From IMG/VR virus record IMGVR_UViG_2541047816_000002: a stretch of DNA of 38,841 nucleotides; one strand, given 5' to 3'. Origin of the DNA: a virus (lineage: Duplodnaviria > Heunggongvirae > Uroviricota > Caudoviricetes). A program made the translations under genes and the position numbers. Shown in pieces: positions 17,156 through 18,131 of this stretch. Each line of letters opens with the position of its first letter. The stretch's first letter is position 1. The notes below the pieces were generated by a model, which saw nothing but the letters and a program-made list of their open reading frames with translations, made no database searches and was not told where the DNA came from.

Positions 17156-17169
17156 CACTTATTTTCCCT

Positions 17170-17196
17170 GGCTCGCTTTTGTGGGCCTTTTTTTTA
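17170..17196 (+). terminator. Rho-independent terminator after the tRNA cluster
   Basis: GGCUCGC-UUUU-GUGGGCC hairpin (two G-U pairs) followed by T9. Confidence 0.55.
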
Positions 17197-17217
17197 AATG
17201 TCTCACAATTTAGGCGG

Positions 17218-17416
17218 TTGACTGTTGTCTGGTTTGCGGGGAGTTTGTTAAAAGAAACTGGCATGGTGAATCCCCCTGTGCGGAGGGGCAATCAGCGAGT
17301 AGGTATATGGGATAATCGCGGATTCAGGTGCTGGTACTGAATTCACCGGGAGGCACCCGGCACCATGCAATGGCACATAGCGCCACTCTCCAGCCCCTCT
17401 CCGGAGGGGCTTTTCT
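17218..17416 (+). ncRNA. Candidate small-RNA module A (TTGACT ... conserved core ... intrinsic terminator)
   Basis: TTGACT at 17218; core catggtgaatccccctgtgcggagggg; caccgggaggcacccggcacc; terminator gcccctc-tccg-gaggggc + TTTTCT at 17393-17416. Confidence 0.4.
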
Positions 17417-17604
17417 GTGCCGGATACATCACAGTTTCTGGAACCTTAGGTACTACAGTATCAGTCAGGGTGCTATATTTTCAGATGTGATGAAAGCCTG
17501 TCAGCAGGCAGGGCGTATCGGAAATGACCCAGTAGAGAAAACGTTGACTCAGATACCGGTGCTGAGTTACCGGGAAACCGGCATCACATGACCGCTATCC
17601 TTCC

Positions 17605-17632
17605 AGGCCCATCCGCTCCGGTGGGCCTTTTT
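17605..17632 (+). terminator. Rho-independent terminator
   Basis: aggccca-loop-tgggcct hairpin followed by TTTTT. Confidence 0.5.
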
Positions 17633-17685
17633 ACTGCAGAAAACAGGTTCCCCGTTAAATGCTATGTTGCTCACAATTCAGTAAG

Positions 17686-17903
17686 TTGACAGTTGCCTGT
17701 CAGACTGGGCATTTGTTAAAAAAATTTCGCATGGTGAATCCCCCTGAGCGGAGGGGCGACTGGTGACGGTATAATCTCTGATTATCAAAACGAGAATGAC
17801 GCGGGTTTAGTGGCACCGGGCTGAACTCACCGGGAGGCACCCGGCACCATGTGCATGATGATACAGATACGCGGCTTTAGCCCCTCTCCGGAGGGGTTTT
17901 CTT
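17686..17903 (+). ncRNA. Candidate small-RNA module B (diverged copy of module A)
   Basis: TTGACA at 17686; same conserved core and caccgggaggcacccggcacc box; perfect TATAAT at 17771-17776; terminator cccctc-tccg-gagggg + TTTTCTT. Confidence 0.4.
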
Positions 17904-17909
17904 GTGGGC

Positions 17910-17938
17910 AAAAAAAGCCCGCGCTGGGAGACGCGGGC
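17910..17938 (-). terminator. Minus-strand intrinsic terminator (back-to-back with module B terminator)
   Basis: gcccgcg-ctgggaga-cgcgggc hairpin preceded on plus strand by A7, i.e. followed by T7 on minus. Confidence 0.45.
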
Positions 17939-18131
17939 GGCAAGGAATAAACAATAAAACGTGAAGTAATATTTCAGCTGGCGAATAATACCCCATAGTA
18001 ATCACTCTGCGCAACTGCGCGGTCTTTTTCGAATTGCGGGCTGTCGTCTCTCTTCTGCCATTGTCCTGTAACTTCCGGACTTCAGCCCGCTCCTTATTTT
18101 ACTCACAATATTATCCCGGCCGGGAGGATTC

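Follow-up and report, generated by a model that had tools for sequence, protein, structure and literature searches.

The interval 17156-18131 of IMG/VR virus record IMGVR_UViG_2541047816_000002 (Caudoviricetes; 38,841 nucleotides, analysed here at full length and called the window) lies between a trio of tRNA genes and an esterase gene, and very probably constitutes a cluster of four independently transcribed, Hfq-dependent, trans-acting small RNA (sRNA) genes in the pR'-proximal moron site, where phage 933W carries stxAB. Three of these genes (A, M and B) would belong to the STnc100/PasD superfamily and stand in tandem on the plus strand, and the fourth, X, would be a convergent minus-strand gene. 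This reading is carried by family membership, by a common fold with covariation, by the match of A to EcOnc05 of E. coli O157 Sakai, by the homology of X to reported sRNAs, and by the position of the units relative to stx, all observed directly in our analysis. Both the sRNA family of the modules and the presence of such genes at this site had been described before; new, and minor, are the conserved A-M-B array, the unannotated M class and the occurrence of the same fold in the dicF-dicB leader.

According to the proposed mechanism, each plus-strand unit would comprise a sigma-70 promoter with an extended -10; a structured 5' domain (the scaffold), in which helix P1 closes a multibranch loop with H1, a variable arm, P3 and H4; a linker, largely single-stranded, short and of hypervariable sequence, carrying the seed; and an intrinsic terminator providing the U-tail for Hfq. 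The sRNAs would pair with host and virulence mRNAs in the lysogen, while after induction Q-modified RNA polymerase would pass all terminators and the esterase and lysis genes would be expressed. Recombination between near-identical scaffolds and terminators would let the array gain or lose units.

STnc100 membership of units A and B

A preliminary description of the interval, made from its letters, had proposed two diverged, duplicated modules, A and B, as candidate prophage sRNA genes. Both prove to be full-length members of the Rfam family STnc100 (RF02076; gathering score 47), module A (17232-17422) with 136.3 bits and module B (17700-17909) with 161.0 bits, each over model positions 1-206. 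Their alignment gives 82% column identity and includes both boxes quoted as shared, and the P1 strands of the two read CAUGGUG/CACCAUG. Module A is identical in sequence to the Northern-positive EcOnc05 of Sakai prophage Sp4: the published EcOnc05 Northern probe falls on 17290-17324 with 0 mismatches (the EcOnc06 probe has one), and the EcOnc05 peak from Hfq crosslinking and analysis of cDNA (Hfq-CRAC) falls on 17293-17401, within the module. Because the Sp4 alignment, the probe match and the peak position agree, module A is, as far as sequence can tell, EcOnc05; the comparison with sRNA loci of enterohaemorrhagic E. coli (EHEC) and the look at Hfq crosslink data that the preliminary description had recommended both led to this RNA. 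Unit B is, judging by the alignments, the positional orthologue of EcOnc27 (= sRNA103) of 933W and Sp5, which follows stx2B.

EcOnc05 is Hfq-crosslinked and Northern-positive in Sakai at about 222 nt, and Northern sizes of about 235/247 nt are given for EcOnc27. The latter (EcOnc27/sRNA103), just 3' of stx2B, is Hfq-bound and Northern-positive (PMC7873438; PMC12711010) and affects fimZ/espA through a mechanism that is not known (PMC7873438). Eleven STnc100 copies are transcribed in EDL933, one of them Northern-positive (PMC5331693), and RpoD binding to STnc100 promoters has been seen in Salmonella LT2 (PMC10794520). Hfq association, discrete transcripts and targets are taken from this literature on identical or homologous sequences and should hold for the window by analogy.

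That the modules might be fragments of a degraded protein-coding gene was named beforehand as the finding that would overturn the sRNA proposal, and we regard its chance as negligible. The RefSeq Prokaryotic Genome Annotation Pipeline (PGAP) does place a minus-strand pseudo 'hypothetical protein' over A and its homologues, and some phage records annotate hypothetical proteins there. Against this, no open reading frame (ORF) over the modules is longer than 87 aa or matches a Pfam family, substitutions between homologues are paired across helices and not codon-periodic, the units are bounded by promoters and terminators, and what PGAP calls there are frameshifted partial pseudogenes on the strand opposite a validated sRNA. 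Partial pseudogenes of this kind recur antisense over STnc100/PasD units, in the window at 17248-17376 (-) and in further loci (L001 4096-4221; L004 2198-2439; L006 2153-2251; L007 2750-2875), and over validated sRNA genes they look like spurious coding calls.

The spacer between A and B is a third unit

The preliminary description counted two tandem modules. A and B are real, but the tandem units number three, since the 'spacer' between them is itself a third, diverged unit of the family, M, with the same fold and another sequence. M scores 90.1 bits against R1, a covariance model of the scaffold domain built here, which finds 133 copies (61 distinct) in 100 viral loci. Its minimum free energy (MFE) topology is that of A and B (z -3.8), and its hairpins H1, P3 and H4 match theirs. 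Of 5426 complete E. coli genomes, 673 (12%) carry M-type sequence, in two variants of about 100% and about 91% identity whose differing positions remodel hairpins yet preserve pairing. None of the 30 listed matches is annotated over the full unit, one partial match falling under 'hypothetical protein', and M was not found in the Stx phages of the phage collection. Chance matches in the M-pattern viral scan were removed by the covariance model; the matches returned by a scan of 596 Gb of genome contigs with the 16-mer GCATGGTGAATCCYCC were mostly due to chance (Streptomyces, Bacillus, others).

The array itself is conserved. Among viral-contig loci with M, an STnc100-type unit lies directly upstream in 19 of 19 and directly downstream in 18 of 19, one locus has four tandem units, and a second prophage backbone, with iraM in the esterase's place after the array, carries the same A-M-B triple. 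The largest array seen, four tandem units with quite diverged promoters and linkers, is on IMG/VR contig 2861053794_000003 (L251 2324-3352, -). According to a Storz-lab preprint (bioRxiv 10.64898/2026.05.13.724894), Pas copies are not tandem. The STnc100 family can form tandem arrays, which would expand via recombination in the shared terminator. Pipelines relying on Rfam thresholds miss the diverged M class, and RefSeq meanwhile puts spurious pseudo coding sequences over these RNAs.

Position relative to stx

The gene order put forward at the outset (Q, three tRNAs, esterase, lysozyme, Rz) agrees with the ARAGORN, Rfam and Pfam results, lysozyme and Rz being confirmed by Pfam, and the absence of a toxin ORF likewise stands: no ORF in 17156-18131 exceeds 87 aa, the module-overlapping ORFs match no Pfam family, and neither stxA nor stxB is present there (longest ORF 87 aa, no Pfam match). 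The tRNA trio (16906-17155, +), annotated ileZ-argN-argO in 933W and Sakai Sp4, is the left landmark of the moron site. The order in 933W is argO, terminator, stxA2, stxB2, a 75-nt gap, an STnc100 unit (208 bits), AsxR on the opposite strand, and esterase. Homology between the window and 933W stops on the left at the T-tract of the 17170-17196 terminator and restarts at the TCACAATTCAG box of unit B, and the window flanks are homologous to those of stxAB on both sides, which confirms the stx-type cargo site proposed in the preliminary description. Because homology breaks at the tRNA terminator and resumes at B, A and M occupy the place of stxAB, with B the positional orthologue of EcOnc27.

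An ungapped alignment of Sakai Sp4 with the window runs from tRNA-Arg to the end of module A and contains two single-nucleotide polymorphisms (SNPs). Compared with the Sp4 state (one unit plus X), the window has 487 nt more, an M+B insertion both of whose junctions fall in the shared AGCCCCTCTCCGGAGGGG terminator. Junctions in a shared terminator point to recombination between repeated units as the probable history. Calling the site 'empty' was right in that stx is lacking and overstated in that Sp4 has the minimal state, to which the window adds M and B. The statement that anti-sRNA genes occur at such late-region positions in EHEC was correct: in eight Sakai prophages, Tree et al. 2014 (PMC4104026) report pairs of convergent sRNAs at the pR' moron site. 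E. coli 55989 and other strains have the 976-bp interval at 100% identity, and strains with the exact array include 55989, NU14 and ATCC 11775; of 5426 complete E. coli genomes, 353 cover at least 80% of the interval and 2869 contain parts of it. In RefSeq it is blank save one pseudo 'hypothetical protein' antisense to A. In prophage PP6 of enteropathogenic E. coli (EPEC) E2348/69, an ISEc13 insertion (L006 612-2150) stands in place of the second tRNA-Arg and has truncated an A-type STnc100 unit in its 5' part, with the X sRNA beside it left intact.

Every terminator listed in the preliminary description was recovered, and one further was found at 18007-18022; terminator-like sites number 10 in the interval against 1.5 +/- 1.3 in shuffles. 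This abundance bears on an alternative in which the units act mainly in cis: the terminator series would, in the lysogen, keep read-through from the tRNA promoter and from pR' out of the esterase and lysis genes, the structured domains would stabilise or process the late-operon leader, X would silence leaky esterase expression as a cis-antisense RNA, and the sRNAs would be by-products. Five plus-strand terminator-like hairpins stand in less than 900 nt where about 1.5 sites are expected, every scaffold lies directly 3' of a terminator (tRNA to A, A to M, M to B, DicF to a fourth copy described below), long X isoforms overlap the esterase 5' untranslated region (5'UTR) and start codon, and the scaffold of the dicF-dicB leader has neither terminator nor seed of its own. 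We nevertheless hold a mainly cis role to be unlikely, given that each unit has its own conserved promoter elements, that homologous RNAs are abundant, discrete and Hfq-bound with trans partners, that hypervariable linkers on a fixed scaffold suit diversifying seeds and not insulation, and that a single unit suffices in Sp4 and 933W. Action in cis is also compatible with the sRNA reading and not opposed to it.

A common fold with hypervariable linkers

Independent MFE folds of A, B and M gave one shared topology, and RNAalifold on a MAFFT alignment of nine sequences recovered P1 and P3, with compensatory changes at 4/8 pairs in each. The R1 alignment of 61 distinct viral-contig sequences has 97.8% of its cells paired, against 37-48% when the partners are slid, and double changes at 14/26 pairs (8/8 in P3, 5/8 in P1); 0/500 shuffles reach any of these measures. 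The modelling across homologous prophages that had been advised thereby supported a common fold with compensatory changes. A, B and M each show the STnc100 consensus fold, a closing helix round hairpins and then an intrinsic terminator. At least eight unrelated classes of sequence fill the 15-45 nt after P1, on a conserved scaffold and usually with a conserved terminator, and in full-length folds the scaffold, an accessible linker and the terminator coexist. As modelled, folds and linkers fit an sRNA with a swappable seed and give no sign of a switch, the linkers being the putative seeds. A tRNA-like or tmRNA-like scaffold was also considered and rejected, ARAGORN reporting nothing there.

The same folds bear on another reading, in which the scaffold would work as a sensor or an effector, either aptamer-like or with RNA polymerase as its object in the manner of HK022 put, and would steer termination or read-through at the terminator after it, with any sRNA role secondary. 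In its favour, domain, linker and terminator resemble in their layout a transcription-attenuating leader, compensatory change preserves the domain across four sequence classes, one of them in a leader upstream of dicB, and the tandem layout recalls tandem riboswitches. We find this reading highly improbable: scaffold and terminator fold together with no obvious competing antiterminator in full-length folds, the linker is hypervariable where an expression platform would need conserved complementarity, no ligand and no partner protein are known, the window has no match to an Rfam cis-regulatory family, and PasD pairs with its targets via the linker. PasD1/2 are Hfq-dependent hubs with the seed in the linker in EPEC, as found by ligation and sequencing of interacting RNAs (RIL-seq; PMC8550237), and are proposed to share an ancestor with STnc100 in the Storz-lab preprint (bioRxiv 10.64898/2026.05.13.724894). 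Downstream of PasD1 in EPEC prophage PP4 (L005 about 2614-2673, -) lies a RIL-seq hub annotated as coding sequence E2348C_1013 and convergent with PasD1. The RIL-seq table gives the entC 5'UTR, the nlpD intergenic region (IGR) and the dnaK 5'UTR as partners of this hub, which may be another dyad partner.

A fourth scaffold copy next to dicF

The fourth scaffold copy found by R1 follows the DicF terminator directly, with an isrK/C4 module downstream of it, and its sequence occurs in 85% of complete E. coli genomes (4629 of 5426). A homologous domain stands between dicF and dicB in K-12 (NC_000913 1649453-1649582; 38 bits), with all P1 pairs, P3 and H4 kept via compensatory changes. No publication linking STnc100 to the dicF-dicB leader was found; the sole paper with all three terms in the library searched names STnc100 in general lists only. 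Compensatory change in the scaffold is seen in at least four classes, that is STnc100, PasD, M and the seedless dicF-dicB copy of Qin-type prophages including K-12. We tentatively raise the possibility, itself rather doubtful, that the STnc100 'body' is an autonomous prophage RNA element (P1/H1/P3/H4), conserved in structure and having its own function. If so, a scaffold role as 5'-end protection, protein or RNA polymerase site, or processing signal would explain why one of the most abundant enterobacterial 'sRNAs' is without assigned function. The fold in the K-12 dicF-dicB leader is a tractable system for studying the role of the scaffold.

The surroundings of this copy hold a one-strand cluster of already known prophage RNAs (4988-5459, -) with DicF (5408-5459), isrK (5100-5176), a weak c4-a1b1 match (5137-5189) and C4 antisense RNA (4988-5075). 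The isrK/C4 part overlaps a mechanically called 284-aa ORF (4373-5227) whose real start is probably further downstream. Elsewhere in the window a full-length sok antitoxin RNA match (120 bits, 11840-12015, +) implies a hok/sok-type toxin-antitoxin locus.

Promoters, RNA ends and the CTCACAATW motif

TTGAC(T/A), listed in the preliminary description among the sequences shared by A and B, is probably not their -35. Alignment of 31 units gave the upstream pattern TCACAATTCAG-N3-GTTGAc-N-gTTG(T/C)CTG-N12-TTTGTTAAAA-N6-GCAUGG, in which the TCACAATTCAG box is the upstream edge of conservation in 25 of the 31 and is missing from PasD and M types. TTGACT of PasD2 and of the PasD consensus aligns with TTG(T/C)CT of A and B. 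TTGAC(T/A) was rejected as -35, lying 24-25 nt from any -10-like hexamer and 7 nt upstream of the PasD-aligned hexamer, and varying among members; the likely -35 of A and B is TTG(T/C)CT. All promoters given for the plus-strand units are predictions. The mapped RNA-seq 5' end of PasD2 lies 1-2 nt before P1, and because a PasD2-like start is assumed by homology, the RNAs would be about 157 nt (A), 148 nt (M) and 176 nt (B) long.

Three copies of CTCACAATW are present, at the positions given in the preliminary description (17202, 17670 and 18102), where 0.64 are expected, and a count of 3 arises in 2 of 100 shuffles. Most of this excess is accounted for by the A/B duplication, to which two copies belong, and these two CTCACAAT motifs are, on alignment, the conserved box upstream of the predicted promoters. 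The third CTCACAAT, at 18102, is probably due to chance: we estimate about 0.4-0.8 chance matches in the remaining ~500 nt for an 8-9-mer from sequence shared by A and B. As PasD targets carry CUCACA, CTCACAAT was also considered as a PasD target site and set aside, the hexamer being too common.

The convergent sRNA X

The back-to-back minus-strand terminator downstream of B is present as described; what had been missed is that another sRNA gene owns it. That gene, X, shares about 96-97% identity with the EPEC sRNA 'E2348C_1409.E2348C_1408.IGR' and with Sakai EcOnc08/21/42, and alignments with EPEC PP6 and Sakai Sp4 reveal the same terminator, CCUUGCC seed and neighbours. Its U-tract ends at 17910, convergent with B, whose Rfam match ends at 17909. 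Sakai CRAC peaks map on X (17912-17984 and 17990-18075), as does the published Northern probe for the X homologue (17984-18018), for which sizes of 182 to about 271 nt have been published. By analogy, one or more longer isoforms are implied that would extend as far as about 18092-18180 and run antisense to the start codon and 5'UTR of the esterase. An X made only as an RNA of ~68 nt was partly rejected: the AsxR-like promoter geometry fits, yet the probe and the 17990-18075 peak need longer isoform(s).

RIL-seq partners of the EPEC homologue, in the part of the table covered here, are the cfa 5'UTR (767 chimeras) and the dppA 5'UTR (197), and further pcm, tir, perA, espC and emrA. Going by these partners of its homologue, X looks like an ordinary base-pairing sRNA and not a sponge. 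A role as Spot 42 mimic was set aside, the shared 11-mer UUACUUCACGU having an estimated chance of about 0.1-0.2 after multiple testing and the RIL-seq seed (CCUUGCC) lying elsewhere; a relation to OmrA/B (25 bits, E 0.09) was rejected as probably terminator-driven. Window positions 17961-17980 (-) and spf (L356 50-160) share UUACUUCACGU plus GCUGAA(A)UAUU, a likeness that is weak after multiple testing. The conserved hairpin at 18007-18030 holds on its minus strand the TTGCGC -35 common to the X and AsxR promoters and forms the right edge of a swappable X/AsxR cassette.

Weighing the sRNA reading

Several points weigh against our interpretation of the interval as four sRNA genes. By Rfam score M (30.1 bits, E 6e-4, model 1-206, 17461-17634; 30.0 bits for its variant M') and the fourth copy (33.1 bits, model 21-154 only) stay below the gathering score, and they are STnc100 relatives, not members, by the Rfam criterion. 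The alignment behind the R1 covariation values (A6) was fitted to the model structure; the RNAalifold alignment was not. The -10 hexamers TAAAAG and TAAAAA are weak, and a simple promoter scan made no call there. Northern sizes of EcOnc05 and EcOnc27 are 45-70 nt above the P1-to-terminator lengths from a PasD-like start, and because they exceed these predictions the 5' ends of the plus-strand units are uncertain, that of A lying possibly up to about 60 nt further upstream than 17260; of the ~200-nt RNAs first proposed, small RNAs remain, with an uncertain length of about 157-222 nt. We infer the expression of M and B in this strain. STnc100-type RNAs are without established direct target or phenotype, and a review table gives them no function. 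Finally, because a scaffold without seed or terminator stands in the dicF-dicB leader, 'sRNA body' is not the whole role of the scaffold.

Hfq-dependent sRNA genes in stx-adjacent prophage moron sites plug horizontally acquired regulators into host and virulence networks, which bears on the ways in which non-Stx prophages in extraintestinal pathogenic and enteroaggregative E. coli may still reprogramme their hosts.

The features of the interval and its surroundings are collected in Table 1. Upstream of the tRNAs, a DNA N6/N4 methylase (PF01555) is split over two overlapping ORFs, 15809-16483 and 16308-16856 (+), as N- and C-terminal profile halves; this suggests a frameshifted gene, and the 55989 equivalent is annotated as a partial pseudogene.

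Table 1. Features of the tRNA-esterase interval and related elements in the window (TSS, transcription start site).
Feature	Position	Strand	Details and basis
Fourth scaffold copy	5260-5389	-	R1 39.9 bits, E 6e-8; scaffold only, no own linker or terminator
Q	14413-15234		Pfam
tRNA(CAU)	16906-16981	+	ARAGORN and Rfam tRNA match; PGAP label Ile2
tRNA-Arg(UCG)	16989-17065	+	ARAGORN and Rfam tRNA match
tRNA-Arg(UCU)	17079-17155	+	ARAGORN and Rfam tRNA match
Intrinsic terminator 3' of tRNAs	17170-17196 (hairpin 17170-17187 + T8)	+	Homologous to 933W 'terminator upstream of the stx genes'
Unit A promoter region	17202-17259	+	TCACAATT(C/T)AG box; variable TTGACT; probable -35 TTGTCT 17225-17230; extended -10 TGtTAAAAG 17246-17254
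Unit A RNA	17260-17416	+	Rfam 136.3 bits; R1 115.5 bits; folds; Sp4 identity; probe and CRAC mapping
Unit A scaffold	P1 17261-17268/17361-17368; H1 17273-17288; P3 17320-17344; H4 17346-17360	+	Folds
Unit A linker	17369-17391	+	Variable; probable seed
Unit A terminator	17392-17411 plus U-tract	+	
Unit M	17465-17636 (RNA about 17485-17633)	+	Sub-threshold Rfam; R1; fold
Unit M extended -10 (textbook form)	17471-17479	+	TGcTATATT
Unit M P1	17485-17492/17582-17589	+	AUGUGAUG/CAUCACAU
Unit M linker	17590-17604 (15 nt)	+	GACCGCUAUCCUUCC; unpaired probability at least 0.8
Unit M terminator	17605-17628 plus U5	+	
Unit B promoter region	17670-17727	+	TCACAATTCAG box; TTGACA; probable -35 TTGCCT 17693-17698; extended -10 TGtTAAAAA 17714-17722
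Unit B RNA	17728-17903	+	Rfam 161 bits; R1 102.1 bits; 933W alignment; fold
Unit B parts	P1 17728-17736/17845-17853; linker 17854-17878; terminator 17879-17898	+	
sRNA X	17910-18103	-	Terminator 17938-17917 plus U7 (T7 in DNA) ending 17910; convergent with B
X seed	17939-17945	-	CCUUGCC, complement of plus-strand GGCAAGG; abuts terminator
X short-form promoter	-35 18014-18009; -10 17990-17985; TSS about 17978	-	TTGCGC; TATTAT
Conserved hairpin	18007-18030	+	CTGCGCAACTGCGCGG plus TCTTTTTCG; terminator-like on plus strand
Third CTCACAATW copy	18102-18110	+	CTCACAATA; esterase 5'UTR, 22 nt upstream of ATG; context unlike other two
Promoter-like site, evidence for X	18138-18110	-	
SASA/DUF1737/DUF6645 esterase	18132-19985		Pfam

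Comparison with known systems

PasD1 and PasD2 (EPEC E2348/69; EcOnc13 in EHEC) have the same 5' end (CGCAUGGUGAAUCC...) and P1-closed domain as the plus-strand units, carry their seed in the linker that joins P1 to the terminator, and lie upstream of an esterase or holin, as here. They differ in lacking H4 and in their terminator, and their linker is longer, rich in U and bears the seed UGUGAG. Neither the PasD seed, whose target motif is CUCACA, nor the PasD-type terminator is found in the units of the window, the linkers of A, M and B being without UGUGAG, and what PasD shares with them is the 5' scaffold only.

X resembles EcOnc08/21/42 and the EPEC IGR sRNA in its neighbours as well, with an A-type STnc100 unit on one side and the esterase on the other and a few SNPs between them; RNAs of the EcOnc08/21/42 type have neither a name nor an Rfam family. 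X also sits in the exact slot of AsxR (RF02703), abutting the STnc100 terminator, and the -35 TTGCGC and an 18-nt spacing are common to both promoters. The body and 3' region of AsxR and AgvB are, however, unrelated to X: the window has no match to RF02703 or RF02702, or to their ~42-nt 3' region, at E<=5, against 88 bits in 933W. AsxR and AgvB are 51-60 nt long, compared with 182 to about 271 nt for the published isoforms of the X type, and are sponges of a core sRNA, whereas the EPEC partners of the X homologue, in the data covered here, are mRNAs and 5'UTRs with no core sRNA among them.

The promoter boxes, scaffold and terminator of A and B are those of STnc100, including EcOnc05, EcOnc06 and EcOnc27 of EHEC. 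EcOnc27 occupies the same place as B, directly upstream of a convergent sRNA and the esterase, and its linker (seed) is unlike that of B. The stx moron site of 933W and Sp5 has the same flanks throughout (ileZ-argN-argO, terminator, cargo, STnc100 with convergent sRNA, nanS-p-type esterase, lysis genes); the cargo there is stxAB and in the window two further sRNA units (A and M), while Sakai Sp4 has the moron site without any cargo. Sp4, Sp5 and 933W each hold one STnc100 unit at the site, where the window holds three in tandem.

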